A stretch of DNA of 55,282 nt from an uncultured Christensenella sp. (GTDB lineage Bacteria; Bacillota; Clostridia; Christensenellales; UBA1242): contig CAYPKM010000001.1 of assembly GCA_964411325.1 (NCBI GenBank), positions 1 to 55,282 on the forward strand, in the 5' to 3' direction. Positions 1-29,075 of the stretch are shown one piece after another (position 1 is the stretch's first letter; each line of letters opens with the position of its first letter). A program made the position numbers and the translations under genes. The notes under the pieces are model-generated. The model had not been told where the DNA came from. It searched no databases and worked only from the letters and a program-made list of their open reading frames with translations.

Positions 1-2
1 CT

Positions 3-575
3 GATGATGATCAAGGACCAACTGACCCAAGCGATCCAACTGACCCAACTAATCCAAGTGATACAGACAATTCAAATAACCAAAACTTTCTAATGGGGAT
101 AACGGCTACTACTGGTACAGACAATATGCTTATTTCATTAAATTATGATAGTGAAAATAACGGATTTTTGGCTACTTCTGAAGCTGAAGATCAAAAGGTT
201 CAAGATTTGGAAGTTGTTACCGAATCAAGTAATATTCTTATCAAATGCAATTATATTGTTTATTCATTGGAATATTTTGAAGAGGGAAATACTGTAAATA
301 TTGCTATCGGTCTTTGTGATGAATGGACAAATGAGAGTGGCTGGAAGATACTTGTTAGTGGTGATGAATCTGATCCCAAAGATATTACATTTGAATCTGA
401 TCAAATAACACTAATAAATGCAAAACTTGCCATGTGTACAGATCCAGACTCTTTAAGTTCTGAAGATGAGAGCAATCAAAAACCATATTTTGCTTTTGTT
501 TTGAGTAATGAAACACTTGGTGTGTCTATAACATTCAATTGTATGTTTACAACATCAGATGATATTGAAATGTAA
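3..575 (+). CDS. C-terminal part of a larger secreted/surface protein (5' end lies outside the window)
   Basis: Frame 3 is open from base 3 (DDDQGPTDPSDPTDPTNPSDTDNSNNQNFL...) into the listed 93..575 ORF. An acidic D-P-[TS] linker repeat is followed by a Ser/Thr/Asp-rich domain. Stop at 573-575, then a hairpin terminator. No family recognised. Confidence 0.55.
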   Translation, partial: DDDQGPTDPSDPTDPTNPSDTDNSNNQNFLMGITATTGTDNMLISLNYDSENNGFLATSEAEDQKVQDLEVVTESSNILIKCNYIVYSLEYFEEGNTVNIAIGLCDEWTNESGWKILVSGDESDPKDITFESDQITLINAKLAMCTDPDSLSSEDESNQKPYFAFVLSNETLGVSITFNCMFTTSDDIEM

Positions 576-594
576 ATGTGTTTTATACAATAAC

Positions 595-624
595 GAAAAA
601 AGTCCACAACAGTGGACTTTTTTG
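595..624 (+). terminator. Rho-independent terminator
   Basis: Stem agtccac (601-607) / gtggact (612-618), loop aaca, followed by a T6 run (619-624). Confidence 0.8.
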
Positions 625-704
625 TGATTGTGTAAAACACTTGGGGGAGTGACGGCTTTTATGTTTTATTGCTCAAGACTTTGAGTTTTTATTTATTATA
701 GGTA

Positions 705-733
705 TTGACAATAGGATATGAAAATGTTAAAAT
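705..733 (+). promoter_or_regulatory. Consensus sigma-A-type promoter with no obvious downstream + strand gene
   Basis: TTGACA (705-710), 17-nt spacer ending in TGt, TAAAAT (728-733). It points into the 3' end of the minus-strand gene 742-1413. Confidence 0.45.
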
Positions 734-741
734 TTAATAAC

Positions 742-1413
742 TTAATTATTTGGACAAATTTTATCTATGTTTCCAAATTTGAATATTTCATTTGTTTTTC
801 TATTGATTACGATATAAGAATTGTTAGGAATGGTATATATGGAAATGTTTTTCTTATTAGCAAGCAATTGAATATTCTTTAAATACTCTATGTTGTCCTG
901 AGTATGCACATCTATCGAAAAATTGCAATTAATTGCTCCAAATCCATTATAAAAAGAATTGCATTCATAATAATTGTTTTGCATTGGCAATCCGTATATC
1001 GGAAACTGAAGTACACTACCAGCACTTTCTCCAATAAGTATTCCTGAATATTTTGTAAACAAATCTAGAACATTCAATCTTATTGCAAGGGTCATAAACA
1101 TTTCTGGATTTCCACCGGGTATAAAAATGCCATCACAATTATCTAAAATATTGATTATCTCGTTTCTTGATGTCTCATATGGATTTACAAATTGAATTTT
1201 CTCTCTAGCCATTCCTAAAATTTCCATTTGTGAAATGAATTTTTCATAGTGACGCCCACCTTCTTCTAAGAAGTCTTCTGATATGTTTGCAATTCTTTCA
1301 TCTGCAAATGTCCAAGGGAATATCGCCAATTTTTTAATATTAATATATTGAAAACATTGTTCTAAATTTTCTTTGCTAACTTCATTAATTTTACTAAACA
1401 AAATACTATACAT
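742..1413 (-). CDS. Peptidase S51 (dipeptidase E / cyanophycinase-like) family protein
   Basis: 223 aa. 'IFIPGGNPEMF' and the nucleophile-elbow-like 'LIGESAGSV' match the S51 pattern. GGAGA RBS before ATG 1413. Confidence 0.55.
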   Translation of the reverse strand: MYSILFSKINEVSKENLEQCFQYINIKKLAIFPWTFADERIANISEDFLEEGGRHYEKFISQMEILGMAREKIQFVNPYETSRNEIINILDNCDGIFIPGGNPEMFMTLAIRLNVLDLFTKYSGILIGESAGSVLQFPIYGLPMQNNYYECNSFYNGFGAINCNFSIDVHTQDNIEYLKNIQLLANKKNISIYTIPNNSYIVINRKTNEIFKFGNIDKICPNN

Positions 1414-1486
1414 ATATATATCTCCTATTATTTTAAATTAATTATATCAAAAGTTTTTGTGCAAAACAAATAAAAGTGAGGATAAA

Positions 1487-2566
1487 ATGAATAAAATAAT
1501 TACAACATTGCCAATAAAACCACAAAGCAATATGAAAACAGGATTAATATTAAGTCCATTGGTTTTAGATGTCTTGTCAAATTTAGTTGATTGTAAAAGT
1601 GTTTTAATGTTAAATCTTTTACATTCGTTTAAGGATTATACGATTCACAAACAAAATTTTATAGATGAACTTGAATCTAATGAGTTACACTTTGATAAAG
1701 TGGATTCGGATGTTAATAATATCCATAAGTATAAAAATATAATAAAAGACTTGTATGATTTAAATATATTAAAAAAGGAGGAGACAATAAATTATAAGTG
1801 TGAGTGTGGGAAAGTTGATATAAAAAAAGATCTTTTACATGAAATATTTAACAAGAAAATGATTGAACTTAAAGATGATGAATATGTTTGTACATCGTGT
1901 TTGTCGCCATTACATTTAATCCCAACAAAAAGTCTGGTGATGGGATGTTCGAAAATAACGGAATGTCCAATTAATGTGTTTCCTAGATTTATTGAAGAAA
2001 AAGCGAAAAGGGGATTAAAAACTTTAGAAGGTTCATCATTTGTTATAACCAAGAATAGAGATACTGGTGTTTCTGTTAATATAGAAGAAGATACATATAA
2101 TATTGACATTGATTTTCTATTGTATTTAACGCCACAACTATTTGATGAAGATGATATTACTATGGTTTGTTGTAATAGACATATTATCCATACATTATTA
2201 ACTAATTACATTAATCATATTTATGGACATAAAAAATTAACATTTATTGAGCATCCATACATTGTAAGTTCAAAGACTGACGATAGTTATTCAAGCCTCT
2301 TGCAATGTGAAAATAAAGATTTAATAAAAGCAAGTTTGATGGCAATGATTTCTTGGAATAATAATGATTGCAAATGGGATGAAGGAAAATATAAATATTT
2401 AAAGAAAAACCAACAATATATTAATTGTGTGTTGCAACAAAATGAGTGCAAAAAAGTAGACATTCAAGAAATAATCGAAAATACAAATAATTCTCTTACA
2501 AATTATTGCTCAGTAATAAACAATATCAAACAATACAAAAATATGGAGAATGAATGGCAAAAATAA
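1487..2566 (+). CDS. Hypothetical Cys-rich protein (two Cys pairs, possible zinc knuckle), first gene of a three-gene operon
   Basis: The ATG at 1487 has a GTGAGGA RBS. The track start at 1457 is a TTG without an RBS. CECG...(about 45 aa)...CTSC. No family motif recognised with confidence. Confidence 0.6.
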   Translation: MNKIITTLPIKPQSNMKTGLILSPLVLDVLSNLVDCKSVLMLNLLHSFKDYTIHKQNFIDELESNELHFDKVDSDVNNIHKYKNIIKDLYDLNILKKEETINYKCECGKVDIKKDLLHEIFNKKMIELKDDEYVCTSCLSPLHLIPTKSLVMGCSKITECPINVFPRFIEEKAKRGLKTLEGSSFVITKNRDTGVSVNIEEDTYNIDIDFLLYLTPQLFDEDDITMVCCNRHIIHTLLTNYINHIYGHKKLTFIEHPYIVSSKTDDSYSSLLQCENKDLIKASLMAMISWNNNDCKWDEGKYKYLKKNQQYINCVLQQNECKKVDIQEIIENTNNSLTNYCSVINNIKQYKNMENEWQK

Positions 2567-3315
2567 AATTAATTAAAAAAGAAAAAAGTCCAATCAAAAT
2601 GATTGTTTTAGATTATGACAACACATTAAGAATGGATGATAATCTTGTCAAGTATTTGACAAGATTTAAAGATATTAATGAATATGAATTGGAATTAAAA
2701 AACTTGTTGCGAAAAATCATAAACAATAACGTATTAATTGTTATTAATACAGGGAGAAGTTTTTATAGTTTTAAGGAATCAAATGTGTTTCCTTATAATT
2801 ATCTATGTTGTAATAATGGTTGTGAAATTTATGATTCAGATGATAATTTATTAGAATATCGTAGTATGGAGAAAGACGATATTGATAAAATTGAATCATT
2901 CAACTTTTCCACCGATTGCGAAATAAAAAAATATTATCCTAAAAGTATAAATAGTACATATTCATTAACGGCAGTTAGCATAAAAAATAAAAATGTTTCA
3001 GAATTTCAAAAAATCATTGAACATTTTAGTAAAAATCTTTTATCGGTAAAAACTTGTTTTTCTTATCCCAAAATTAGATTGATAAATGCTAAAACTAATA
3101 AATTTAAGATTTTGTCGTTTTTCATAAATAATTTAAATATAAATATTGATGAAATTAGGGCAATTGGAGATGATGATAATGATTATGAATTATTAAAAGG
3201 TTTGAAAAGTGCAAGTTTGGTATGGCAGAGTAAAAAAATTAAAAAATTAAAATTGAAAATTTATAACAGTGTGTTTGATTATATATTAAGTTTGGATAAG
3301 GAATATGAAAAATAA
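2554..3315 (+). CDS. HAD-IIB (Cof-type) phosphatase
   Basis: Motif I 'VLDYDNTL' (DxDxT), 'INTGR', motif IV 'GDDDNDYELL'. The start overlaps the upstream ORF by 13 nt. Confidence 0.7.
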   Translation: MAKIKLIKKEKSPIKMIVLDYDNTLRMDDNLVKYLTRFKDINEYELELKNLLRKIINNNVLIVINTGRSFYSFKESNVFPYNYLCCNNGCEIYDSDDNLLEYRSMEKDDIDKIESFNFSTDCEIKKYYPKSINSTYSLTAVSIKNKNVSEFQKIIEHFSKNLLSVKTCFSYPKIRLINAKTNKFKILSFFINNLNINIDEIRAIGDDDNDYELLKGLKSASLVWQSKKIKKLKLKIYNSVFDYILSLDKEYEK

Positions 3316-4393
3316 TTTGGTTTTACATTTTTTAGATGATGAAATAATTGAAAGTAATAGATTAATTTTAAAATACAGGAAGTTATATACGGAATACATA
3401 CGTAAAAATTGTGGTCTTAGTGAAAAAAGAATAATTGTTTTGAAAATTATTAAAGACATATTAGACGATTATTCTTATTTTAATGGTAATGCAATTGTCT
3501 TTTTTACTGGAAGTTATGCTAGAGGAATTCTAAAAGAATTAAGTGACTTTGACTTAAATGTAATATATTTGCGTGGTAGTGGTAAGAAATACAAAAAGTA
3601 TGAAGAATTGTTTTATTACATTGTATGTTCTGTTTTTGATATGAATAGAAAGTTGGTGCATCCAGTACTTGTTACATTTAATGATGATGATAATGCAAAG
3701 TATGTAAAAAATTTAATGGATCAAAAAGATTATAATATAACATTATTAAGTAATAGTTTTAATGTTAATTATATTGTTCCAGGAAGTTCTAAAAAAAGGA
3801 TGTATTTGCAATATTTAAATAATAAAAACTATAAAGTTATATTTAATAAACTGAAAAATAATCCTTTAAGAGAGTGGCAGTTTACTTTTAAATTTTTAAA
3901 TGAGAACAAAAAAATAAAAAATTATTATTCTTGTTTTAAAAACAATTTGGTCAAACAGGAAAGTTTAAGAGGAAAAATTGAAGAATTAAAAGATTATATA
4001 GGGAAACTTATTAGTAATAATTTTAATACGTCTCAAGATGTTGTAAATACGAAAGATATAAAACAATATTATCAACAAGATGCATTGCAATTGATTTATA
4101 ATTATATTTTGTTTAAAAAAATTATTAGTAAAGATTCATGTTTAGACTTGTCAGATTTGAATTGTCAAAATAATTATGAATCATCTATGATTATTGAATA
4201 TACAAACAACCTAGAATTGTTGAGGCGAGTATTTCAAGAAAATAAGTTAGAGTACAGTATTCACGAGTCAAATGTAGTCAATATTGGAGATAAGGACAAG
4301 AAAGAATTAAGAAAAGTTATTATAATGATAGATAATTGTTTATCAAAAATAAAGGAAAAAATACTAAAGGAATTAAAAAAAGAATTGATTTAA
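3305..4393 (+). CDS. Pol-beta superfamily nucleotidyltransferase with a long helical C-terminal region
   Basis: 'FFTGSYARGILKELSDFDLNVIY' is G-S-x(9-10)-D-x-D. 362 aa. The start overlaps the HAD ORF by 11 nt. Confidence 0.65.
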   Translation: MKNNLVLHFLDDEIIESNRLILKYRKLYTEYIRKNCGLSEKRIIVLKIIKDILDDYSYFNGNAIVFFTGSYARGILKELSDFDLNVIYLRGSGKKYKKYEELFYYIVCSVFDMNRKLVHPVLVTFNDDDNAKYVKNLMDQKDYNITLLSNSFNVNYIVPGSSKKRMYLQYLNNKNYKVIFNKLKNNPLREWQFTFKFLNENKKIKNYYSCFKNNLVKQESLRGKIEELKDYIGKLISNNFNTSQDVVNTKDIKQYYQQDALQLIYNYILFKKIISKDSCLDLSDLNCQNNYESSMIIEYTNNLELLRRVFQENKLEYSIHESNVVNIGDKDKKELRKVIIMIDNCLSKIKEKILKELKKELI

Positions 4394-4551
4394 ATTATTT
4401 CAAGGATTGTGTCTTTAGTATAAACACAAAAATTACCATAAAAAACGAAAACGGCAATACTTTCTGTGCTTTTTAGAAAGAAGTTTAAAGATGTTTGTCT
4501 CCTCCAGACGGTCCTTGGACTCTATTTGATATCAATCTTTAGCCATAGAAT

Positions 4552-4588
4552 CAAAAAGCATCACTAAAAATTTTAGCGATGCTTTTTT
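4552..4588. terminator. Bidirectional hairpin terminator between convergent genes
   Basis: Stem agcatcac (4557-4564) / gcgatgct (4576-4583) with one mismatch. An A-run lies upstream and a T-run (4583-4588) downstream. Confidence 0.6.
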
Positions 4589-4610
4589 CGTGCTATTGTA
4601 AAAAATAATA

Positions 4611-5111
4611 TTAAGTTATTCTTACCACATCTAGTTCGGCTTTGTTTACTGTTACTGTCGAGGAACTTCTATTGTAGATAGAAACAACTGTAGGGGATGA
4701 TGAAATGTTTAGATATATAGTGTGGCTAGTAGTGCCAACTGTTGCACCATCTGCAATTGTTACTACAAATGTGTAATCTGTGCCATCTACGGCGATTGCG
4801 AAATTGTACGAGCCTGTGTCGCCTGTTGCTTCCAAAGTGGTAGTTATTAGATATAGTCCTGTGCTATTTATCCTTACTGTGTTATTGACAAATAGCATAT
4901 CTGCATCATTTGTCAAAACATTGGTGCCGGTAATAGAAACAACTGAATTAGTTGCGACAGACTGGGTTGTGTCGTTTCTATTGGTACTAGCGCTAAGAGT
5001 AGCAGTTCCGTCTCTGCCAGCAGGACCTTGAGGGCCGGCTGGACCAGTAATATAGACATACCTAGTAATTGTTTGTGGTAGGTTTCCTCCACAACAACAA
5101 TTATTATTCAT
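4611..5111 (-). CDS. Short collagen-like protein with BclA/C1q-like C-terminal domain and Cys-rich N-terminus
   Basis: The ATG at 5111 has an AAGGAGA RBS. The track's longer start at 5192 lacks one. The protein begins MNNNCCCGGNLPQTITRYVYIT, then has five GXY triplets (GPAGPQGPAGRDGTA), then a Thr/Ser/Val-rich beta-type domain of about 125 aa. Confidence 0.65.
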   Translation of the reverse strand: MNNNCCCGGNLPQTITRYVYITGPAGPQGPAGRDGTATLSASTNRNDTTQSVATNSVVSITGTNVLTNDADMLFVNNTVRINSTGLYLITTTLEATGDTGSYNFAIAVDGTDYTFVVTIADGATVGTTSHTIYLNISSSPTVVSIYNRSSSTVTVNKAELDVVRIT

Positions 5112-5214
5112 AAAAGTCTCCTTGAGGGATATTTCCCAATTGTTTTTCGTGATGTTAAAATTTGTGCAAGTAGCAAGAGCCTTCAAAAGCAATTAAAATA
5201 TTAACATCACCTAA

Positions 5215-5261
5215 TGCATATTATGCACGGCACACTTTTTTTGTTTAAAAAAAGCAAACTT
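5215..5261. repeat. Intergenic repeat copy A
   Basis: Shares 'tttttttgtttaaaaaa(a)gcaaactt' and an upstream 'atatt(a/g)tgcac' with copy B at 6144-6188. Confidence 0.6.
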
Positions 5262-5296
5262 TTAAAAAGTCGAAAAACATTTTTCAAGTTTGCTTT
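5244..5296 (-). terminator. Terminator of the HD-domain gene
   Basis: Arms aagcaaactt (5252-5261) / aagtttgctt (5286-5295). On the minus strand the hairpin is followed by a T7 run. Confidence 0.6.
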
Positions 5297-5324
5297 GATT
5301 GAATATTTTTTGATGAAAAATATA

Positions 5325-5975
5325 TTATAATTGTTTGTCGTGAGTTTCGCTAATATTGTTGTTTAAAGCATAGTTGGAAATGGTTCTAAAATTATTATCA
5401 TAAGGATATGTTTGCTGTCCAAATTTCAACCACATAGTTGACCATGAGGTGTTAGTTTTGAGCAAGTCTTGAACCCTTTGGTCTTTTGCTGTGTTGTTAT
5501 TGTCTTGTTTTTCCAAATCAACGCAACCTTCTTCGTCGTATAGTTTACATTGCAAATCACATTCTAATTTGTCACATTGATAAGCGAATATAGCTTCTTT
5601 TGTTTTGCGAGCATCAAATTCCAAAAACAATTCTTCAATTTGTTTTCCGTCCATTAGTCCATTCAATATTTGATGAACGGCATTGTGTTCCAGATTTTCT
5701 TTTTCTTCTTTTGATATTTGAAATTGTGTTAGATCACCGATAATAGTTTCGCCAAGTTCGTGAATGGCTAGCATTGACAAGACTTTCTTAATGTCTACAT
5801 CATACTGATATTCAGATTTCATAGCAACAGCAAGCATTTGTACTCCAAAGATATGCTCCGCAACACTCTCAATTCTGTCTCTTTGGACATTCCAGTTTTT
5901 CCAACCAGTTCTAATAATATTTTTTAATCTATTGCAAATTACATAGTATTTAATTACTTCTTGTTCTTTTGACAT
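5325..5975 (-). CDS. HD-domain phosphohydrolase (YfbR-like 5'-deoxynucleotidase family)
   Basis: 'RIESVAEHIFGV', 'LAIHELGETIIGD', and a later 'D' motif match the HD_3-type pattern. AGGAG RBS. Confidence 0.65.
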   Translation of the reverse strand: MSKEQEVIKYYVICNRLKNIIRTGWKNWNVQRDRIESVAEHIFGVQMLAVAMKSEYQYDVDIKKVLSMLAIHELGETIIGDLTQFQISKEEKENLEHNAVHQILNGLMDGKQIEELFLEFDARKTKEAIFAYQCDKLECDLQCKLYDEEGCVDLEKQDNNNTAKDQRVQDLLKTNTSWSTMWLKFGQQTYPYDNNFRTISNYALNNNISETHDKQL

Positions 5976-6143
5976 GTATGCTCCTAATTACTTTAATTGT
6001 TATTTTATATTTCGATTTTAACACAGGGATTAATTTTTTGCAATATAGAAATATTATTTTTGCAATTTCTAGTGTGAATATTGTTTTTCTTTTTTTGGTC
6101 AACCTGACTTGATTTGTGTTTGCGAACAAAAACATCGCTTAAT

Positions 6144-6188
6144 TTATATTGTGCACAACTCAATTTTTTTGTTTAAAAAAGCAAACTT
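6144..6188. repeat. Intergenic repeat copy B
   Basis: See copy A. It lacks the complementary arm, so it is not a hairpin here. Confidence 0.6.
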
Positions 6189-6201
6189 CTACAAAAGGAT
6201 T

Positions 6202-6229
6202 TTGATTTTTTGGGGAAATATGTTAAAAT
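6202..6229 (+). promoter_or_regulatory. Candidate ugd promoter
   Basis: TTGATT, 16-nt spacer, TGtTAAAAT (-10 at 6224-6229). Confidence 0.4.
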
Positions 6230-6262
6230 CACAAAACTATTAGATACAAAAGGAGAAATTTA

Positions 6263-7459
6263 GTGAAAAATATTGTAGTGTTTGGAATGGGGTATGTCGG
6301 GCTTTCAAATTCACTTTTGTTAGCACAAAACAATAATGTTGTAGGCATAGAGATTGATAAGAAAAAGGTGGAATTATTAAATAACAAAATATCTCCTATC
6401 GAAGACAAAGAGATATCTGAATTTTTGAAAAACGAAGATTTGCATTTTGTTGCAAAAGTAGAAGATGATGAGATGGTGTCAAAGGCAGATTATGTTTTGG
6501 TTTGTACGCCAACTAATTATGATGAGATAAATGAGTATTTCAATGTGTCTTCTGTAAATAGTGTTATAGACAAGGTTGTCGCAATCAACAAAAATGCAGT
6601 AATTGTTGTCAAATCCACAATTCCAGTGGGTTTTGTAGATAGTGTGGTTAAAAAACACCCGGATATCAATATCTTGTTTTCGCCTGAGTTTTTGAGAGAG
6701 GGGCAGGCTTTGAAAGACAATCTTTATCCATCAAGAATTATTGTAGGAACGGATTTGAAAAACAAAAAGTTGTGCGAGTCTGCCGAAGAGTTTAGAGATA
6801 TAATGTTGCAATCGGCTATGGCTCAAGACGTGCCAACTTTTATAATGGCTTATCAAGAAGCAGAGAGCGTGAAGTTATTTTCAAATACATATCTAGCAAT
6901 GAGAGTTGCGTTCTTTAATGAATTGGATAGTTTCGCTTTGAACAAAAATTATAATTCCAAAGCCATTATCGAGGGTGTATGTGCAGACAAAAGAATCGGT
7001 GCGTATTACAATAATCCATCATTTGGATATGGTGGTTATTGCCTGCCAAAAGATACCAAACAATTATTTGCCGAATACGAAAGAACTTTCGTACCTAATG
7101 AATTGATGAAAGCCATAGTTGATTCCAATTCGTGTAGAAAGAAAGTTATTTTGAAAGATATTTTGGAAAGAACACAGCCAGAAGATGTAATTGGTGTGCA
7201 TAGACTTGCTATGAAGGCTAATTCGGATAATTGCAGGTCTAGTGCAATTGTTGATGTGGTGAAGATGTTGGCAAGATACAGAAAGGTGATTGTGTATGAA
7301 CCTACAATTGCAGATTTGGGAGTAGACAATGTGGAAATGGTGAATTCGCTTGAGACATTGAAGACTAGTTCGCAATTAATACTAGCAAATAGAATAACCA
7401 AAGATATTTCTGATGTGGTAGAAAAGGTGTACACAAGAGATATCTACAATCGCGATTAA
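6263..7459 (+). CDS. ugd: UDP-glucose 6-dehydrogenase
   Basis: N-terminal 'VFGMGYVGLS' Rossmann motif and catalytic 'GGYCLPKD'. GTG start with AAGGAGA RBS. Confidence 0.85.
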   Translation: MKNIVVFGMGYVGLSNSLLLAQNNNVVGIEIDKKKVELLNNKISPIEDKEISEFLKNEDLHFVAKVEDDEMVSKADYVLVCTPTNYDEINEYFNVSSVNSVIDKVVAINKNAVIVVKSTIPVGFVDSVVKKHPDINILFSPEFLREGQALKDNLYPSRIIVGTDLKNKKLCESAEEFRDIMLQSAMAQDVPTFIMAYQEAESVKLFSNTYLAMRVAFFNELDSFALNKNYNSKAIIEGVCADKRIGAYYNNPSFGYGGYCLPKDTKQLFAEYERTFVPNELMKAIVDSNSCRKKVILKDILERTQPEDVIGVHRLAMKANSDNCRSSAIVDVVKMLARYRKVIVYEPTIADLGVDNVEMVNSLETLKTSSQLILANRITKDISDVVEKVYTRDIYNRD

Positions 7460-8511: not shown

Positions 8512-9351
8512 ATGGCGATAGTGATGAATGGCAAAGTAATTGCAAGTGAGTGCGAAGAGCAAATGAAAGAAAGGGTGGTGGTTTTGAAGGAAAAGCTAAA
8601 CTTTACACCAACGCTTGCTACAATAATTGTCGGCGATGATGTCGCTAGTGTGACATATGTAAATATGAAAGCCAAGGCGTGCGAGAGGGTAGGGCTGGGC
8701 TCAAAGATTATTAGGCTGAGTGAAGACTCTAATACAGAGGATTTACTAACTGAGATAAAAAGGCTAAATGAAGATAAGTCCATTTGTGGGATACTTCTTC
8801 AGCATCCCACTCCTAAGCACATTGATGAAAGGAAATGCTTTGATGCAATTGCAATAGAGAAAGATGTGGATGGGGTGAATAGTCAAACTTTTGGCAAAAT
8901 GGCATTGGGAGAAAAATCGTATTTGCCTGCTACACCATATGGCATAATGCGTTTGCTTGAGTATTACGGCATAGAACTTGAGGGCAAAAACGCTGTGGTT
9001 GTGGGCAGAAGCGCTATACTTGGCAAGCCTATTGCAATGCTTTTGCTAGCCTCTAATTGCACCGTCACCATTTGTCATTCAAAAACAAAAAATCTGCCAG
9101 AGATTTGCAAGACGGCAGATATAATAGTCGGTGCTGTGGGCAAACCGAAATTCATAAAGAAAGAATGGTTAAAAGAAGGTGTGGTCTTGATTGATGCTGG
9201 GTACAACGCCGGCAATGTGGGAGATATAGACCTAGAAAATTGTGTGGAAAAAGCATCTGCATATACTCCCGTTCCGGGTGGGGTAGGCCCAATGACCATT
9301 AATTCGCTAATTTTGCAGACTTTGGAAAGTGCCGAGAAAATGAGTAATTAA
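8512..9351 (+). CDS. folD: Bifunctional methylenetetrahydrofolate dehydrogenase / methenyl-THF cyclohydrolase
   Basis: 'LATIIVGDDVASVTYVNMKAKACERVG', 'GILLQHPTPKHID', 'KDVDG', 'VVVGRSAILGKP', 'TPVPGGVGPMT'. Confidence 0.9.
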   Translation: MAIVMNGKVIASECEEQMKERVVVLKEKLNFTPTLATIIVGDDVASVTYVNMKAKACERVGLGSKIIRLSEDSNTEDLLTEIKRLNEDKSICGILLQHPTPKHIDERKCFDAIAIEKDVDGVNSQTFGKMALGEKSYLPATPYGIMRLLEYYGIELEGKNAVVVGRSAILGKPIAMLLLASNCTVTICHSKTKNLPEICKTADIIVGAVGKPKFIKKEWLKEGVVLIDAGYNAGNVGDIDLENCVEKASAYTPVPGGVGPMTINSLILQTLESAEKMSN

Positions 9352-9938: not shown

Positions 9939-10655
9939 ATGAAGAAAAAATGTAGAATATATGAAAAATTCTTTAAAAGATTTTTCGACCTAATTATATC
10001 TTTTTTGGCGATAATTATTTTGTCACCATTCTTTTTGTTGACATATATTTTGTCGCTAATTTTTTTGGGTGGCAATCCAATCTTTAAACAATATCGTCCG
10101 GGCAAGAATGGCAAAATCTTTGCTCTATACAAATTTCGCTCGATGACCAACAAAAAGGACAAGGATGGCAATCTGCTTCCAGACAAAGATAGAATCACTT
10201 GGTGGGGCAAAGTGCTAAGAAAGACCTCTCTTGACGAACTTCCACAACTTTTTAATATCCTCAAGGGGGATATGTCCATAATAGGCCCAAGACCGAGAAT
10301 GGTGGAAGAATGTGTTTTCCTAGATGAAACTCAACAAGATAGATTTGCTGTTCGCCCGGGAATTACTGGCTGGGCACAGGTAAATGGTAGAAACTCAATA
10401 ACACTAGACAAAGTTGTACAGTTTGACAAAGAATATGTAGAAAAAATCTCTTTGGGGATGGATATCAAAATATTTTTCAAAACTATCGGTTATGTGCTAG
10501 GCAAGGGTAAAAAAGATATAAACAAAGAGGGAACGGTATCAAATGAATTTCACGGTGATTACCTTCTTCGTACAAAACAAATCACACAAGAATATTATGA
10601 CGAAAAAATATCTCTTGCCAAACATATGATAAAAGAAGCAAAGGAGAAAAGGTGA
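9939..10655 (+). CDS. Undecaprenyl-phosphate sugar-phosphate transferase (small PglC/WbaP-C-type initiating transferase)
   Basis: 'KRFFDLIISFLAIIILSPFF', 'KFRSM', 'DELPQLFNILKGDMSIIGPRP' is the bacterial sugar transferase signature. Confidence 0.85.
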   Translation: MKKKCRIYEKFFKRFFDLIISFLAIIILSPFFLLTYILSLIFLGGNPIFKQYRPGKNGKIFALYKFRSMTNKKDKDGNLLPDKDRITWWGKVLRKTSLDELPQLFNILKGDMSIIGPRPRMVEECVFLDETQQDRFAVRPGITGWAQVNGRNSITLDKVVQFDKEYVEKISLGMDIKIFFKTIGYVLGKGKKDINKEGTVSNEFHGDYLLRTKQITQEYYDEKISLAKHMIKEAKEKR

Positions 10656-11821
10656 TGAAAATATTAGTAGTCTCACAATATTTCTATCCTGAGCAGTTTA
10701 GGATTAATGATATCTGCAAAGAATTGGTGGATAGGGGGCACGATGTAACTGTTCTTACGGGAAGACCAAATTATCCACAAGGGAAAATATATTCTGGATA
10801 TGAAAAGTTTAATAGAGAGCCTGAACTAATTAATGGCATAAAAGTTATAAGGGTTAAGGCTAGACCTAGAAAGACTGGTGCAATTAATTTGTTTCTTAAT
10901 TATTATAGTTTCTCAAGCAAGTCAAAAAAGCAGGTTGTCAAACTTGATAAGGATTTTGATGTTGTATTTATAAATCAGACATCCCCAATAATGCAGGCAA
11001 GTGCGGGCTTGAAATATAAAAAAATGTATGGAACAAAAGTTGTATTGTATTGCTTGGATTTGTGGCCGGCTAGTTTAAGTGCTAGAGGAATTAAAGGTGG
11101 GCCTGTATATGGTTATTACAAAAAGGTTTCAAAGAAGATTTATAATTCTGCAGACAAAATTTTGATATCATCCAAAATGTTTGAAAAATATTTGTGTGAA
11201 GAATTAAAAATTGATAAATCAAAAATTACATATCTTCCACAATATGCCGAAGATATGTTTGGAACAATTAAACAAACAAACAAGCAAAAGAAGAATTTTG
11301 ATATCGTCTTTGCAGGAAATGTTGGGAAAATGCAATCTGCCGGAACCATAATTGAGAGTGCAAAATTGCTAAAAGATTATCCTGTAAAATTTCATATTAT
11401 TGGTGATGGCTCAGATTTGGATAATTGCAAGGCTTTGGCTGATGGAATGAAAAATATTAAATTTTATGGGCAATTGCCTTTGGAAGAAATGCCTAAATAT
11501 TACAAAATGGCAGATGCAATGCTTGTTACACTAAAAGATGACGATTTGATATCTTATACTTTGCCTGGCAAGGTTCAAACTATTATGTCTGCAAGCAAAC
11601 CAATAATAGCGTGTGGCAAAAATGAATTGAAAAATACGATTGAAGAGGCAAAATGTGGATATTGTGCAATGCCTGAAAATGCGGAAGATTTGAAAGATTG
11701 CATAATCAAGTTTATAGAGTGCAAAAACAAAGAAAAGTTATCGCAGAATTCAAGAAAATATTACGAAAAGAATTTTGACAAAGAAAAAGTTACAAATAAA
11801 CTAATAAAGGAATTGAGGTAA
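10655..11821 (+). CDS. GT4 glycosyltransferase, WbuB-like (candidate L-FucNAc transferase)
   Basis: 'MKILVVSQYFYPEQFRINDICKELVDRGHDVTVLTGRPNYP' is typical of WbuB-type enzymes next to fnlABC. The ATG overlaps the upstream TGA. Confidence 0.7.
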   Translation: MKILVVSQYFYPEQFRINDICKELVDRGHDVTVLTGRPNYPQGKIYSGYEKFNREPELINGIKVIRVKARPRKTGAINLFLNYYSFSSKSKKQVVKLDKDFDVVFINQTSPIMQASAGLKYKKMYGTKVVLYCLDLWPASLSARGIKGGPVYGYYKKVSKKIYNSADKILISSKMFEKYLCEELKIDKSKITYLPQYAEDMFGTIKQTNKQKKNFDIVFAGNVGKMQSAGTIIESAKLLKDYPVKFHIIGDGSDLDNCKALADGMKNIKFYGQLPLEEMPKYYKMADAMLVTLKDDDLISYTLPGKVQTIMSASKPIIACGKNELKNTIEEAKCGYCAMPENAEDLKDCIIKFIECKNKEKLSQNSRKYYEKNFDKEKVTNKLIKELR

Positions 11822-11823
11822 AT

Positions 11824-12849
11824 ATGGGATTATTTAAAGACAAAGTTTTGATGGTTACAGGAGGTACTGGCTCATTTGGAAATGCTGTTGTTAGGAGATT
11901 TTTGGAGTCAGACATCAAAGAAATTAGAATACTTAGTAGAGATGAAAAGAAACAAGATGATATGCGTCACGAATTGCAAGTAAAACATCCTGATGTGGCT
12001 GAAAAGGTTAAATTTTATATTGGCGATGTTAGAGACTACAGTTCAATTTGTGATCATTTCAAAGGTGTTGATTATGTTTTTCACGCAGCAGCACTTAAAC
12101 AAGTGCCAAGTTGTGAGTTCTTTCCATTAGAGGCAGTTAAGACTAATGTTTTGGGCAGTAATAATGTTATAACTGCTTGTGTAAATAATGGTGTCAAAAA
12201 AGCAATATTTTTGTCAACAGACAAAGCCGCATATCCTATTAATGCTATGGGGATGAGTAAGGCTATGATGGAAAAAAATGTGGTTGCTAGAAGTAGACAA
12301 CTTAACGATAATGATACCATACTTTGTTTGACTAGATATGGAAATGTAATGGCATCAAGAGGTAGCGTAATTCCTTTGTTTTGCGATCAAATTGCAGAAG
12401 GCAAACAATTGACGATTACCAATCCAGAAATGACTAGATTTATGATGACATTGGAAGATGCTGTAGATTTGGTTCTTTATGCTTTTGAGAATGGAAAACA
12501 AGGCGATTTGTTTGTTCAAAAAGCACCAGCGGCAACTATTCAGACATTGGCAGAAGCAGTTCTTGATTTGAAAAAATCTGATGTTGGATACAAAGTTATT
12601 GGAACTAGACATGGAGAAAAGTTGTATGAGGTTTTGGTAACTTCTGAAGAAATGTTGAGAGCGGAAGATTTAGGTGGATTCTACAGAATACATGCTGATA
12701 ATAGAAATTTGAATTATGATAATTACTTTAGCAAAGGCAATGAGGATTTGAATTCAATTGACCAATACAATTCACACAATACAAAGAGACTTGACAAAGA
12801 AGGTATGAAAAAGTTGCTACTTAAATTAGACTTATTCGATGAGGAATAA
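11824..12849 (+). CDS. fnlA: UDP-GlcNAc 4,6-dehydratase/5-epimerase (FnlA/CapE/WbjB)
   Basis: 'KVLMVTGGTGSFGNAVVRRFLESDIKEIRILSRDEKKQDDMRHEL' is a near-canonical CapE/FnlA N-terminus. Confidence 0.9.
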   Translation: MGLFKDKVLMVTGGTGSFGNAVVRRFLESDIKEIRILSRDEKKQDDMRHELQVKHPDVAEKVKFYIGDVRDYSSICDHFKGVDYVFHAAALKQVPSCEFFPLEAVKTNVLGSNNVITACVNNGVKKAIFLSTDKAAYPINAMGMSKAMMEKNVVARSRQLNDNDTILCLTRYGNVMASRGSVIPLFCDQIAEGKQLTITNPEMTRFMMTLEDAVDLVLYAFENGKQGDLFVQKAPAATIQTLAEAVLDLKKSDVGYKVIGTRHGEKLYEVLVTSEEMLRAEDLGGFYRIHADNRNLNYDNYFSKGNEDLNSIDQYNSHNTKRLDKEGMKKLLLKLDLFDEE

Positions 12850-12852
12850 AAT

Positions 12853-13962
12853 ATGAAAATATTGGTAACTGGGGCAAAGGGATTTGTAGGCAAAAATTTG
12901 GTTTGTCAATTGAGAAATTTGGGATATGAAGATATATATGAATTTGACCAAGACAATCTTGTGTCGGATTTGGATAAATACACCAAAGATTGTGAATTTG
13001 TTTTTCATTTGGCAGGGGTGAATAGACCCCAAAATGCAGATGAATTTATGACGGGCAACTTTGGACTAACATCTGACCTACTTGCATATTTGCAAAAGAA
13101 TAATAATTCTTGCCCAATTATGTTGTCATCGTCTATACAAGCGTCTTTGGATAATCCTTATGGAAAATCCAAAAAAGCAGGAGAAGACTTGTTGTTTGAT
13201 TATTCCAAAAACAACAATGTTCAAGTGTATATATATAGATTTCCTAATTTGTATGGCAAATGGAGTAGACCAAATTATAATAGTGTAATTGCGACTTTTT
13301 GTTATAATATTGCTAGAGATTTTCCTATAACAATTAATGACCGTCAAGCAACTTTGCATCTATGTTATATAGATGATGTAGTGGAAGAACTTATCAATTG
13401 TTTGAATGGTAAGCCTTATAGAGATGGCGAGTTTTGTAGGGTGCAAAAAGAAGACGAGTCTACTTTGGGCAAAATTGCAGATACTATTCAGTCTTTTAGA
13501 GACAATAGAGAAAGTAAAGATGTGCCTAATGTTGGTGATCACTTAGAGAAATGTTTGTATTCCACATATTTATCATTCTTGCCAGAAGACGGGTTTTCTT
13601 ATCCTTTGAAAATGAATGTGGATAACCGTGGTTCGTTTACTGAGATTATCAAAACAATGGATAGAGGACAATTTTCAGTTAATATTTCTAAGCCGGGGAT
13701 TACCAAAGGAAATCATTGGCACAATACCAAAAACGAAAAATTCTTGGTTGTTTCGGGGCATTGCCTTATTAGATTTAGAAAAATTGGCGAAGACAAAATC
13801 ATTACATATGATGTGAGTGGAGAAAAATTAGAGGTGGTAGATATTCCGTGTGGATACACACACAATATCACAAATATCGGAGAGAATGACTCCGTCACCT
13901 TTATGTGGTGCAATGAATGCTTTGACCCAGAAAACCCTGATACTTATTATTTAGAGGTATAA
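12853..13962 (+). CDS. fnlB: UDP-2-acetamido-2,6-dideoxy-hexulose reductase/epimerase (FnlB/CapF/WbjC)
   Basis: An SDR N-domain ('MKILVTGAKGFVGKNL') plus a C-terminal cupin-like domain. Position between fnlA and fnlC. Confidence 0.8.
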   Translation: MKILVTGAKGFVGKNLVCQLRNLGYEDIYEFDQDNLVSDLDKYTKDCEFVFHLAGVNRPQNADEFMTGNFGLTSDLLAYLQKNNNSCPIMLSSSIQASLDNPYGKSKKAGEDLLFDYSKNNNVQVYIYRFPNLYGKWSRPNYNSVIATFCYNIARDFPITINDRQATLHLCYIDDVVEELINCLNGKPYRDGEFCRVQKEDESTLGKIADTIQSFRDNRESKDVPNVGDHLEKCLYSTYLSFLPEDGFSYPLKMNVDNRGSFTEIIKTMDRGQFSVNISKPGITKGNHWHNTKNEKFLVVSGHCLIRFRKIGEDKIITYDVSGEKLEVVDIPCGYTHNITNIGENDSVTFMWCNECFDPENPDTYYLEV

Positions 13963-13965
13963 GAG

Positions 13966-15108
13966 ATGCAAAAATTAAAATTGATGACAATAATTGGTAC
14001 TAGACCAGAAATAATTAGACTTTCGGAAACAATTAAATGTGCAGACAAGTATTTTGATCAAATACTTGTGCATACAGGACAAAATTATGATTACAACCTA
14101 AATCAAGTGTTCTTTGAGGATTTGGGACTAAGAGAACCAAATTATTATTTGAATGCTGTAGGCAAAGATTTGGGAGAAACTATAGGAAATATCATTGCCA
14201 AATCTTATGAATTGATGGTTAAAGAAAAACCAGATGCACTACTTATTTTAGGGGATACTAATTCCTGTTTGTCAGCAATATCTGCCAAAAGATTACACAT
14301 TCCAATCTTTCATATGGAAGCGGGAAATCGTTGTTTTGATGAATGTCTTCCTGAGGAAACCAATAGAAGAATTGTAGACCATATAGCAGATGTCAATATT
14401 TGTTATTCAGAGCACGCTAGAAGATATCTAAATAGTGAGGGGACTGCCGAAGAACGTACTTACGTCAGTGGTTCTCCAATGGCTGAAGTTTTGAGGGTAA
14501 ATTTCGACAAAATTAAATCTAGCGATATTTTGAAGAAATTAAACCTTGAAAAAGGTAAATACATATTGCTTTCGGCACATAGAGAAGAAAATATAGATAC
14601 CGAAAAGAATTTCTTGAGTTTGATGACAGCAGTCAATCAGATGGCAGAAACATATAATATGCCAATTTTGTATTCTTGTCATCCTAGGAGCAAAAAATTT
14701 ATTGAACTTAGAAACTTTAAATTTGACGATAGAGTTATTCAACATGAACCATTGGGCTTCCATGATTACAACAATCTGCAAATGAATGCTTTTTGCGTAG
14801 TTTCGGATAGTGGAACATTGCCAGAAGAAAGTAGTTTTTATCTATCTGTTGGCGCTCCCATTCCAGCAGTATGCATTCGTACATCTACCGAAAGACCTGA
14901 GGCTTTGGATGCCGGCGACTTTGTACTTGCAGGCATTAATACCGATGAAATTTTGCAATCGGTAGATATGGCTGTCAAAATGGTTCAAGAGAAAGATTTG
15001 GGCAAACCTTGTAAAGATTATACAGACGAGAATGTCTCTATCAAAGTTATTAGGCTTATTCAATCTTACACTACAATAGTAAATAAAATGGTTTGGAGAA
15101 AAAATTAG
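13966..15108 (+). CDS. fnlC: UDP-N-acetylglucosamine-type 2-epimerase, non-hydrolysing (FnlC/CapG/WbjD)
   Basis: 'IIGTRPEIIRLS', 'HTGQNYD', 'LGDTNS', 'HMEAGNR'. Confidence 0.85.
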   Translation: MQKLKLMTIIGTRPEIIRLSETIKCADKYFDQILVHTGQNYDYNLNQVFFEDLGLREPNYYLNAVGKDLGETIGNIIAKSYELMVKEKPDALLILGDTNSCLSAISAKRLHIPIFHMEAGNRCFDECLPEETNRRIVDHIADVNICYSEHARRYLNSEGTAEERTYVSGSPMAEVLRVNFDKIKSSDILKKLNLEKGKYILLSAHREENIDTEKNFLSLMTAVNQMAETYNMPILYSCHPRSKKFIELRNFKFDDRVIQHEPLGFHDYNNLQMNAFCVVSDSGTLPEESSFYLSVGAPIPAVCIRTSTERPEALDAGDFVLAGINTDEILQSVDMAVKMVQEKDLGKPCKDYTDENVSIKVIRLIQSYTTIVNKMVWRKN

Positions 15109-16298
15109 TGAAAATATTATTTGTTAATTCAGTATTGGGTATAGGTAGTACAGGAAGAATTGTTGAAACCTTGTATAATTACTTCAAAAGCGAAGGTCAT
15201 GATGTCAAAGTCGCTTATGGAAGAAATAAGTATACTGGCATTCCTCAAGAAGACCAATATTGTTTCTTTAGTAAATGGAATATCAATACTCACGGATTGC
15301 TTGCTAGAATCAATGATAATGCAGGACTTGCTTATTCCAAAAAATCAACCCAAAAATTGATAAATTTCATTGCAGACTATAAACCCGATGTAGTAAATTT
15401 GCACAATTTGCATGGGTATTATCTCAATGTACCAATGCTACTAAAATATTTGGGCGAAAATAATATTAAGTGCGTTTTTACTCTTCACGATTGTTGGTTG
15501 TTTACTGGACATTGTGCATATTTCTATTATAACAATTGTGATGGATATACTAGAGATTGTGCTAATTGCAAATTCAAAGGTGTTTATCCCAAATCTTATC
15601 TTTGCAATCGTGCAAAAAGAAACTTACAACTAAAGAAAGATTTGCTTGATGGAATAAAAAACAAATCGTTCATTTGTCCATCAAATTGGTTGAAAAAATT
15701 TGCTAAAAAATCTATACTAAAAAATGAAAAAATTGATGTGGTGTATAATGCTATAGACTTTTCAGTTTTTAATCTAAAAGCAAAGAATTATTTCGAAAAA
15801 GAAAAACTACCTGCAGACAAATATATAATTTGTATTGCTAATTATTGGAATGAAGCCAAAGGATTAAATAAAGTTGTGGAATTGTCAAAAGTTTTAGACG
15901 ACGGGTACAAAATTGTGCTTATTGGATATTTGCAAGACAAATCAATTCTAAATGAAAATATAGTTTACATTCCACATACAAATGATACAAAAGAATTAGC
16001 GTTTTATTATGCTAATGCTACTGCATTTTACAATCCAACATTAGAGGATAATTTCCCAACAGTAAATATCGAATCTCTTGCTTGTGGAACACCAGTAATA
16101 CTTTTCAAAGATTGCAGTGGTGGGGAAGAAATTATTGATGAAACCAATGGACTTGTGATAGACAAAAATGCTAGTCCTAATGATATTTGGCAAAATATAA
16201 AAAATCTAAAAATAAAAAACAAAAAACAAATGTCAGAAAGCGTGCAAAGCGAATGTAGCAAACAAAAGTTTTGCGAAGGATATAAGGAGAAGTTTTAA
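15108..16298 (+). CDS. GT4 glycosyltransferase
   Basis: 'EDNFPTVNIESLACGTPVI' (E-x7-E region). The GTG at 15108 has a GGAGA RBS and overlaps the fnlC stop. An alternative TTG start lies at 15093. Confidence 0.7.
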   Translation: MKILFVNSVLGIGSTGRIVETLYNYFKSEGHDVKVAYGRNKYTGIPQEDQYCFFSKWNINTHGLLARINDNAGLAYSKKSTQKLINFIADYKPDVVNLHNLHGYYLNVPMLLKYLGENNIKCVFTLHDCWLFTGHCAYFYYNNCDGYTRDCANCKFKGVYPKSYLCNRAKRNLQLKKDLLDGIKNKSFICPSNWLKKFAKKSILKNEKIDVVYNAIDFSVFNLKAKNYFEKEKLPADKYIICIANYWNEAKGLNKVVELSKVLDDGYKIVLIGYLQDKSILNENIVYIPHTNDTKELAFYYANATAFYNPTLEDNFPTVNIESLACGTPVILFKDCSGGEEIIDETNGLVIDKNASPNDIWQNIKNLKIKNKKQMSESVQSECSKQKFCEGYKEKF

Positions 16299-16304
16299 AA
16301 TTGT

Positions 16305-17417
16305 ATGAATAATATTGAGCCAATTTATGTTGTTTTTGCTATTTTCTTAGCGTCATTAGGTTTAATAAAAAATAAAAAAGTACAATTTTGGGGTGTATTT
16401 TTCTCTTTTGTTATAATCTTTGTTATGGCAGAGGTTGGTCCTGATTATTCAGGATATAAAATGATATATGAAAGTAATGCACAAGGAGAGATGGCTCACG
16501 GAGAACTGATGTATTCGTATCTAAACAAATTTTGTGCTAGTCTAGGAATTAGTTACAATCTTTTTAGAGTTGGTTTTTTATCCTTGTTTATCTTTTTGCT
16601 TATATATTCTATTAATAAAATAACAAACAAAACGACTATTTGTTTTTTGATGTATTATTTCGCTTTTATTGTTTATTTGATTTCTGCATATAGGCAACTT
16701 GCAATTATTTCTGTTTTCATTTTCTCAATATATGTGATGTTTTACAAATCTAAGAAAAACAATATTGTTTGGAATTGCTTAGTTTTGGGTATTAACTTCT
16801 TGGCTATTTTTATTCATACTGCTGCGATTTTTCAGTTTTTAATTGTTTGCATATGTGTATTATTTGAGTTTGTAAAAATAAACAAATTAAAAATTATTAA
16901 TGATAAAATAATTAACAATTTATCTTTGGTTTTATTATTATGTTTGTCTATTAGATTCATTATATGTGGATTATTTATGGTGTTTCCTTCATTACAGCAT
17001 CTAATATTAAACATACCATATGGCAATGAGTGGGAAACTTTTGGGTTTGGACAAATGTCTAGACTAATTATTTTATTGAGTTTGTATGAAATGTATAATA
17101 ATAAAAAACAGAGTAAACAAACTCAGTCATTATTTGTTATTTATACATATTCAATGTTATTATATTTTGTTTTGCCGTTTGATTTGTTATTAGGAAGACT
17201 TATTAATACAATAAGATTCTTGGAACCGATATTATTTTTAAATATGTTAGATCAATATAACGATTTTGAAAATTATCAATTATTTAAATTCGAAGTATCG
17301 AAAAGAAATGTGTATATAACAATAATGATAAGTGCTTATATTTTAATATTTATGTCTCAAATGATTTTACAAACGGGATATGAAGAATATAAACACATGT
17401 TCTTTAAAGTAAATTAA
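16305..17417 (+). CDS. EpsG-family polytopic membrane protein (Wzy-type repeat-unit polymerase)
   Basis: About 10 hydrophobic segments, 'GPDYSGYKMIY' as the EpsG-type N-terminal motif, very AT-rich. Confidence 0.6.
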   Translation: MNNIEPIYVVFAIFLASLGLIKNKKVQFWGVFFSFVIIFVMAEVGPDYSGYKMIYESNAQGEMAHGELMYSYLNKFCASLGISYNLFRVGFLSLFIFLLIYSINKITNKTTICFLMYYFAFIVYLISAYRQLAIISVFIFSIYVMFYKSKKNNIVWNCLVLGINFLAIFIHTAAIFQFLIVCICVLFEFVKINKLKIINDKIINNLSLVLLLCLSIRFIICGLFMVFPSLQHLILNIPYGNEWETFGFGQMSRLIILLSLYEMYNNKKQSKQTQSLFVIYTYSMLLYFVLPFDLLLGRLINTIRFLEPILFLNMLDQYNDFENYQLFKFEVSKRNVYITIMISAYILIFMSQMILQTGYEEYKHMFFKVN

Positions 17418-17430
17418 GGAGAATGATTTT

Positions 17431-18441: not shown

Positions 18442-18467
18442 AAATATTATAACAAGGCGAAAATGTT

Positions 18468-20084: not shown

Positions 20085-20157
20085 TGGATGTTTTATATTG
20101 CTTAGCAATTGCATTTCAAGGAAAATAATGGTTGTTATTTAACATTCCACGATATCC

Positions 20158-20186
20158 TTGACATAAATTATATTAATTGTTAAAAT
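20158..20186 (+). promoter_or_regulatory. Sigma-A-type promoter upstream of uppS
   Basis: TTGACA (20158-20163), 17 nt ending TGt, TAAAAT (20181-20186). Confidence 0.6.
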
Positions 20187-20231
20187 GTTTTTGCTGGTAT
20201 GCAAAAATACAAAAGTTTAAGTGGGTTATTT

Positions 20232-22186: not shown

Positions 22187-22191
22187 AAGTG

Positions 22192-22223: not shown

Positions 22224-22231
22224 CATATAAT

Positions 22232-29063: not shown

Positions 29064-29075
29064 GAGAGGTTTTTT

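Follow-up and report, generated by a model that had tools for sequence, protein, structure and literature searches.

A MetRS-like protein lacking HIGH and KMSKS, linked to a nucleotidyltransferase, a phosphatase and an S51-like hydrolase in gut bacteria

Paralogues of aminoacyl-tRNA synthetases (aaRS) that work in other chemistry, namely MshC, the cyclodipeptide synthases and the hydrazine synthetases, have each begun a new area of enzymology. Here we describe a four-gene cassette (positions 742-4393) in a stretch of 55,282 nucleotides from an uncultured Christensenella sp. (GenBank assembly GCA_964411325.1, contig CAYPKM010000001.1; hereafter the window). One of its products, which we call RSL, has the core of a methionyl-tRNA synthetase (MetRS), and it is encoded with a Pol-beta nucleotidyltransferase (NTase), a HAD-IIB phosphatase and an S51 peptidase-like hydrolase. 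RSL differs from the known recruited aaRS paralogues in that both class-I signatures are lost and in its coupling or fusion to a separate NTase and an S51 enzyme. We infer that it is an aaRS paralogue recruited to non-translational chemistry, with a new architecture, lost signatures and new partners. No Pfam or NCBIfam model, source annotation or paper was found for the RSL family or for the NTase-RSL-S51 association, and as far as we could find the family is apparently undescribed.

Among the closest described enzymes are the hydrazine synthetases PyrN and Spb40/Tri28, MetRS-derived, tRNA-independent small-molecule enzymes with zinc knuckles, in which the MetRS-like domains are ligases with intact motifs (bioRxiv 10.1101/2025.08.22.671884; PMC2922099). 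PyrN keeps HLGH and KFSTG and forms its own aminoacyl-adenylate (bioRxiv 10.1101/2025.08.22.671884; PMC2922099), whereas HxGH/KFSTG are absent in RSL. PyrN is also cupin-fused and linked to a lysine N6-monooxygenase; the partners of RSL are instead the NTase, S51 and HAD enzymes, and neither a cupin nor a lysine N6-monooxygenase neighbour was found in the ~54 loci described below. Identity of RSL with the MetRS paralogue of Aravind et al. 2010 was considered and rejected, that family being the cupin-linked hydrazine synthetases (PMC2922099). Cyclodipeptide synthases likewise have a class-I aaRS-derived fold from which the ATP-binding signatures have been lost, and are enzymes nonetheless (PMC2922099). 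They differ from RSL in their class Ic (TyrRS/TrpRS-like) origin, in having no zinc knuckle in the connective peptide (CP) and in having no link to an NTase, S51 or HAD enzyme; no sequence match between them and RSL was found.

Two pathways bear comparison with the module as a whole. Microcin C systems (MccB, MccC, MccE, MccF, MccG) share with it an S51 enzyme, a RimL-type GNAT as an alternative, an MFS protein in one variant and a nucleotidyl-transferring enzyme (PMC9239234). In those systems the RimL-type GNAT, the S51 enzyme and the MFS pump are alternative immunity or export parts, and the S51 MccG enzymes hydrolyse the aminoacyl-nucleotide warhead of processed microcin C (PMC9239234). The module differs in having no ThiF-like MccB, either in the cassette or in a census of flanking genes, in the Pol-beta type of its NTase and in its MetRS-like hub; no precursor peptide was identified for it, none having been sought systematically. 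Mycothiol biosynthesis (MshA, MshA2, MshB, MshC, MshD) resembles one variant of the module, a ten-gene operon, in joining an aaRS paralogue and a phosphatase to a GNAT, a glycosyltransferase and an amidohydrolase. However, MshC is CysRS-like with intact motifs, and the core of the module is without a glycosyltransferase and adds the NTase and S51 enzymes.

The cassette and its boundaries are as follows.

596-623: terminator-like hairpin with a 12-bp stem, 3' of the S51-like gene and of ORF 93-575
742-1413, minus strand: S51-like Ser-His hydrolase, 223 aa, with a PF03575 match
1414-1486: divergent intergenic spacer of 73 nt with ribosome-binding sites for the S51-like gene and RSL
1487-2566, plus strand: RSL, 359 aa, the MetRS-like protein first noted as a Cys-rich unknown; GAGG ribosome-binding site 8 nt before ATG 1487
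2554-3315, plus strand: HAD-IIB phosphatase, 253 aa, with PF08282 and TIGR01484 matches
3305-4393, plus strand: Pol-beta-superfamily NTase, 362 aa, with a PF01909 match and helical N- and C-terminal parts
4552-4588: terminator-like hairpin with one mismatch, not picked up by the terminator scan, 160 nt past the NTase stop

RSL gave no match in Pfam, NCBIfam, PADLOC or a PDB sequence search, and its fold came to light by structure search alone. Its first relatives came from a word-indexed search, which found nine, one of them HAD-fused, and the resulting shallow alignment was used for an AlphaFold model (pLDDT 87, pTM 0.85). In a Foldseek search of this model against the PDB the top 50 matches were nearly all MetRS (E 3.7e-12, query-normalised TM at most 0.72), and further matches included Mycoplasma mobile LeuRS and the MetRS-like domain of PyrN (PyrN-C, 9l8v). 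The TM values against MetRS are 0.6-0.72 when normalised to the query and 0.37-0.51 when normalised to target length, at ~10% identity. Both proteins have a Rossmann fold split by a CP insertion that bears a Cys4 zinc knuckle, but MetRS exceeds 500 aa and carries HIGH, KMSKS and an anticodon-binding domain, whereas RSL has 359 aa and no tRNA-synt_1g match. C-terminal to its core are ~100 helical residues, and from the model and the target-normalised TM it would appear to be without a full anticodon-binding domain.

When 1.84 billion cluster representatives were searched with a profile, the family grew to 323 at E<1e-3, with 213 under 1e-10. Most are stand-alone proteins of 350-380 aa, and neither Pfam nor NCBIfam holds a model for them; a word-indexed protein search with a 92-sequence RSL profile returned no further members. 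The near-invariant positions in the 92-member alignment are P9, N43, D75, the four knuckle cysteines, P166, S/T188 followed by K/R-x-R191-T-G, D207xD209 and P257. Only C105, C107, C135 and C138 are family-conserved among the 14 cysteines of RSL, and the knuckle that they form is kept in at least 90% of the 92 sequences. N230 is invariant only in a close 10-sequence alignment, with Asn predominating there in the sampled wider family. At the position of HIGH, located by a GluRS profile match (E 0.008) and by hhalign to E. coli MetRS, RSL reads K17-T-G-L20, a column that is unconserved in the 92 members, and the KMSKS region (after H256-P-Y) varies across the family in both sequence and length. 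The local hhalign alignment, whose E. coli MetRS reference was checked against PDB entry 1f4l, is collinear and statistically weak (P 0.054) and was used for motif mapping only; it places vestiges of the MetRS DWxISR, YVWxDA and GKD/H motifs in collinear order in RSL, and the ribose-binding aspartate of GKD at N230.

HIGH and KMSKS are conserved nowhere in the family, and the description of RSL as a MetRS-like core without them is therefore correct. The first-pass annotation, made from the letters of the window, had offered a class-Ia, MetRS-like core minus HIGH/KMSKS as a weak guess, which the Foldseek matches and the 92-member alignment bear out. Canonical ATP-dependent amino-acid activation by RSL is unlikely. 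The protein keeps the class-Ia Rossmann/CP architecture and the zinc knuckle, but in place of HIGH and KMSKS, which bind the phosphates of ATP, it has another conserved set, namely N43, D75, S/T188-K/R-x-R191-T-G, D207xD209 and N230. The pocket made up of D207xD209, R191 and N230 is polar and acidic, and to judge from its strong conservation in the alignments it looks catalytic.

The catalytic motifs of the other three enzymes are kept family-wide. In the HAD protein (PF08282, E 4.5e-18; TIGR01484, 53.1 bits, cut-off 41.8) motifs I-IV are intact as D20xD22xT24, T66, K173/K183 and GD206xxND210. The S51-like protein (PF03575, 30.8 bits, cut-off 23.9, E 3e-7) is divergent, its profile reaching Lmo0363 (3l4e) at E 0.03 only, yet the module family keeps GGNPEM, G128-E-S130-A-G and D168-V-H170 without variation (22-orthologue alignment; 33 of 34 sequences); no invariant acidic residue was assignable from sequence as the Glu of the triad. 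Its mean column identity across phyla is 60% (22 orthologues), against ~25% for RSL. The NTase (PF01909, 23.4 bits, cut-off 21, E 8e-5) keeps G69-S70 ... D81-F-D83 in 35 of 37 sequences; E100/E101 and E190 are conserved too and are candidates for the third catalytic carboxylate. Foldseek neighbours of the NTase model (pLDDT 90) are distant: DrrA (E 1.7e-4, TM 0.44), then GlnE, aminoglycoside nucleotidyltransferases (ANTs) and MntA, with ANT(9), ANT(4') and AadA included at weak scores and nothing significant among viral structures. The NTase shares with GlnE, DrrA and the aminoglycoside ANTs the Pol-beta core, G-S ... DxD and flanking helical domains, but the likeness is weak (E 1.7e-4 for DrrA and at least 0.01 for the others, TM at most 0.44, 9-14% identity). 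On the strength of the model it is probably an adenylyltransferase-like enzyme.

The layout agrees in most respects with what had been read from the letters. The identities of the NTase, HAD and S51 proteins hold at Pfam and NCBIfam scores over curated cut-offs; the overlaps by which the three plus-strand ORFs were called translationally coupled were recovered, 13 nt between RSL and HAD (2554-2566) and 11 nt between HAD and NTase (3305-3315), as was the 73-nt control region between the S51-like gene and RSL. Both hairpins proposed as bounds of the cassette are present, with folding energies well beyond those of shuffled sequence (z -4.5 to -6.2). Hairpin 596-623, the sole site in a terminator scan of 1-6300, folds at -15.9 kcal/mol (z -5.5), and 4552-4588 at -14.7 kcal/mol (z -4.5) on the plus strand and -18.7 kcal/mol (z -6.2) on the minus strand. 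Because an A-run and a T-run flank each hairpin, both are able to act bidirectionally. The latter is probably common to the convergent collagen-like gene at 4611-5192 (minus strand) and may belong mainly to that gene. The low G+C content of the cassette also holds, at 24.3% against 33.7% for the whole window; the 48% quoted for folD came from one sampled line and does not, the full gene standing at 42%. Just beyond the two hairpins lie an acidic 160-aa ORF without a family match (93-575, plus strand), which has 596-623 as its terminator, and the product of 4611-5192, 193 aa with a short collagen-like G-x-y stretch (GPAGPQGPAGRDG), a Thr/Ser/Val-rich C-terminal part and a likeness to BclA-type exosporium or surface proteins, without a Pfam match.

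The genes keep company well beyond this genome. A pattern-based scan of GTDB species genomes gave 37 loci, and metagenomes added 17, for a total of ~54. The main architecture, recovered by iterated HMM searches on the ORFs of the genome loci and present in ~30 of the 37 genome loci and mostly repeated in the 17 metagenome loci, is NTase-RSL-S51 on one strand with genes mostly abutting or overlapping, and the same HAD subfamily follows it 3' in ~10 loci. The order seen in the window, with S51 divergent from RSL-HAD-NTase, recurs in Clostridia (L002, L004, L010, L011) among wholly different flanks. From this comparison the NTase-RSL-S51 triad is the ancestral core and the HAD enzyme optional, and the gene order of the window is a rearranged, Clostridia-specific version. 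Fusions join NT::RSL (P0066, P0116, L040), RSL::HAD (P0009, P0025), S51::RSL (P0081), RSL::PRTase, a phosphoribosyltransferase (P0086), and RSL::NTase (P0099). The co-occurrence of these genes in other genomes, a check proposed at the outset, is thus borne out across phyla, gene fusions included, and the neighbourhood is conserved outside the source genome in about 50 loci.

The 37 loci come from uncultured Clostridia, Muribaculaceae, gut Bacilli/Tenericutes that include CAG:884, CAG:609 and "Mycoplasma sp." CAG:776, one alphaproteobacterial and one Microgenomates metagenome-assembled genome, and a Pasteurellaceae isolate, Nicoletella semolina DSM 16380 (L040). Module G+C lies below that of the flanks in 41 of 42 loci (~19-25% against 37% in Nicoletella), which supports horizontal spread from an AT-rich pool, and the module appears to be horizontally mobile among gut bacteria of several phyla. 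Large serine recombinase genes adjoin it in L024 and L042 and lie a few kb from RSL in L015 and L038, and in L011 a tRNA gene (9100-9171) lies ~100 nt from the S51-like gene; these are consistent with carriage on integrative elements. RSL had no match in phage, IMG/VR or plasmid collections, and the S51-like protein none in the plasmid collection, the only one used for it. No riboswitch or leader adjoined the module when the window and 18 of the loci were scanned with Rfam.

A Pfam census of 117 flanking genes returned housekeeping functions (Rel, acyl-CoA synthetase, pyruvate kinase, RsgA, aminoacyl-tRNA synthetases), with a NUDIX protein as the sole recurrent extra partner (7 cases) and no known defence gene or ThiF-like protein. 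Several loci hold variant operons.

L023: GNAT, NTase::NUDIX, HprK-like protein, RSL, UDP-glucose dehydrogenase
L040 (Nicoletella): NT::RSL, overlapped by an MFS exporter gene
L029: GatZ-like protein between S51 and HAD
L005-L009 and L055 (for example L006:4250-14729), very AT-rich gut contigs: ten-gene operon with a 42-aa ORF, SIS-like, HAD-IA-like, Amidohydro_2, 525-aa PRTase-like and RSL::HAD proteins, then NTase, RimJ/RimL/PseH-type GNAT, GT2, xanthine-PRTase-like protein and UDP-glucose dehydrogenase

An NT5C-like protein is a further partner, and a RimJ/RimL-type GNAT takes the place of S51 in variant operons. All of these variant partners act on nucleotides, sugar phosphates or small-molecule amines. 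The ten-gene operon, with its RSL::HAD fusion, is a sister form of the window arrangement and has the look of a pathway to a natural product of nucleoside or amino-sugar type, centred on the RSL-NTase pair. In the window an HD-domain, YfbR-like 5'-deoxynucleotidase (5325-5975, minus strand) and a UDP-glucose 6-dehydrogenase (6263-7459, plus strand) lie just 3' of the cassette. RSL has the latter enzyme for company in L023 and the ten-gene operon too, so that the proximity of the two here is perhaps not accidental.

Beyond the folds, the intact NTase, HAD and S51 motifs, the conserved polar pocket of RSL, the tight linkage with its fusions and the mobility of the module, all established here, we tentatively favour the view that the cassette is a self-contained, horizontally transferred small-molecule enzyme module, which would make or process an aminoacyl- or amino-sugar-nucleotide conjugate whose product S51 or GNAT matures or detoxifies. 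The Pol-beta NTase would carry out the nucleotidyl transfer that RSL no longer performs. RSL would use the pocket that in its ancestor held the aminoacyl-adenylate to bind the resulting aminoacyl- or amino-sugar-nucleotide intermediate, and would catalyse or scaffold the step after nucleotidyl transfer; the HAD-IIB enzyme would strip one phosphate, and the S51 Ser-His hydrolase would cut an amide or ester bond, either in product maturation or to protect the host. The first-pass annotation had suggested an aminoacyl- or peptidyl-nucleotide pathway with the peptidase acting in processing or immunity. That suggestion fits the comparative data and the MccG precedent (PMC9239234), and may describe the module in outline. 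The GNAT and MFS parts known from microcin C systems appear to replace S51 in the variants found here.

Several points weigh against this view of a small-molecule module. To our knowledge Pol-beta NTases nucleotidylate hydroxyls, not carboxylates, and a split synthesis of aminoacyl-adenylate is therefore without precedent. There is no exporter in most loci, the window included, and no precursor peptide was identified in most loci, again with the window among them, a systematic search not having been made; neither is easy to reconcile with a secreted antibiotic as the general rule. The nearest structures to the NTase, DrrA and GlnE, are protein AMPylases (a weak match, TM 0.44), and the very small host genomes and housekeeping neighbours would fit a housekeeping or salvage role too. 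The substrate, the product and the order of steps are what we infer from comparison.

A narrower form of the proposal, which we consider unlikely, is a split synthetase, in which a complex of NTase and RSL would build a non-canonical aminoacyl-nucleotide that mimics a class-Ia adenylate, with S51 or GNAT as producer immunity. The recurrent IleRS and LeuRS neighbours hint at the target of such a product. By NCBIfam, IleRS lies 0-1 genes from the module in L018, L023, L029 and L047, in four different arrangements (type 1 in L018, a ~1030-aa type 2 in the other three), and LeuRS 0-1 genes away in L040 of Nicoletella; the RSLs of the four IleRS-adjacent lineages share 26-40% identity with one another. 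The five lineages are deeply divergent, and each has an arrangement of its own. A target or self-resistance relationship could lie behind this adjacency, or else co-regulation, and the IleRS association is borderline once multiple testing is allowed for. If true, the split synthetase would give uncultured gut bacteria a new way to make microcin-C/agrocin-like aaRS poisons without the ribosome.

The same neighbours could be read from the side of the target. The module might be a detoxification or resistance system against an antibiotic that mimics the aminoacyl-adenylate of a class-Ia synthetase, with RSL as a dead decoy or binder, S51 hydrolysing the drug in the manner of MccG, the NTase inactivating it by adenylylation like ANT/Lnu enzymes, and HAD and NUDIX enzymes clearing nucleotide fragments. 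The S51 precedent of MccG (PMC9239234), the likeness of the NTase to ANT(9), ANT(4') and AadA besides DrrA and GlnE, the alternative GNAT and MFS partners, the proximity of IleRS and LeuRS genes and the patchy, gut-associated, horizontally transferred distribution at low G+C are all in keeping with it. However, conserved translational coupling and fusions of RSL indicate sequential catalysis or a complex, not three independent activities, and the RSL pocket appears catalytic where a decoy is called for. Resistance genes usually move on plasmids, and the plasmid collection held no match; nor does the borderline IleRS association lend much weight. We regard resistance as doubtful.

Action on the aminoacylated 3' end of tRNA, as translation quality control or a toxin-like regulator, seems to us distinctly improbable. 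Here the CP and zinc knuckle of RSL would bind the acceptor end, S51 would deacylate or GNAT acetylate the aminoacyl-tRNA, and the NTase would modify the 3' end in the manner of MenT/AbiEii-type enzymes. GNAT toxins and NTase toxins that target tRNA are established, the CP zinc knuckle is the most conserved feature of RSL, and aaRS, Rel and RsgA genes are somewhat enriched among the neighbours. Cyclodipeptide synthases, moreover, use aminoacyl-tRNA with a class-I fold minus HIGH/KMSKS (PMC2922099). But RSL, at 359 aa, appears to be without an anticodon-binding domain (TM normalised to MetRS length at most 0.51), the HAD-IIB, NUDIX, PRTase, UDP-glucose dehydrogenase, GT2 and MFS partners suggest small molecules, and no tRNA gene was consistently next to the module in the Rfam-scanned loci.

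A nucleotide-signal or nucleotide-modifying defence cassette had been put forward in the first-pass annotation as one possible function and is now unsupported. Anti-phage defence, with the NTase making a nucleotide signal or AMPylating a target and S51 or RSL as effector or sensor, we think very unlikely. The sporadic spread across phyla, low G+C, variable flanks and adjoining serine recombinase genes are what a defence system might display, and S51, far less variable than either NTase or RSL, has the pattern to be looked for in an effector that stays constant while its sensors diversify. Yet matches in PADLOC-DB 2.0 were marginal and to single-gene candidate models only (NTase to PDC-S09 at E 2e-3 to 2e-5, over the minimal NTase core; NUDIX to PDC-S07), with no significant match for RSL, S51 or HAD. 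The flanks are housekeeping genes, no effector domain (nuclease, pore, TIR, SIR2) was recognisable, and the phage, IMG/VR and plasmid collections gave no match.

An intracellular aminoacyl-amino-sugar metabolite, such as an analogue of a low-molecular-weight thiol or compatible solute made by the mycothiol-like logic of glycosyltransferase, phosphatase, deacetylase, aaRS-like ligase and GNAT, would suit the transcription unit of L005 and L006 type (GT2, RSL::HAD, Amidohydro_2, GNAT, UDP-glucose dehydrogenase), the UDP-glucose dehydrogenase near RSL in the window and L023, and the want of an exporter in most loci, but MshC retains ATP motifs that RSL does not, the core triad has no glycosyltransferase, and NTase and S51 are left unexplained, so that we give it very little credence.

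Nicoletella semolina DSM 16380 offers a cultivable way in to the module. If the small-molecule module that we favour makes or destroys an aminoacyl-nucleotide, it is of relevance to gut microbial competition and antibiotic discovery; otherwise it is still a compact, tractable three-enzyme system.

Further along the window lies a polysaccharide-biosynthesis locus (9939-26480, plus strand) with a low-G+C, serotype-like core at 16-19 kb (25-27% G+C). Its genes encode a sugar transferase, GT4s, CapD/FnlA-like enzymes, UDP-GlcNAc 2-epimerase, an EpsG-like polymerase, GT2, UppS, a Wzy_C protein and an NTP-transferase::HAD fusion. A tie between the cassette and this locus (9.9-26 kb) was considered and rejected: five unrelated mixed-strand genes lie between them, and other copies of the module are without such a neighbour. 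Directly 3' of the polysaccharide locus are a stand-alone non-ribosomal peptide synthetase-type condensation-domain protein (501 aa) and then an AMP-binding adenylation enzyme (574 aa), at 27558-30800 on the plus strand. A T-box leader (32034-32258, plus strand; 101.7 bits) stands directly 5' of pheS/pheT (32256-35707).

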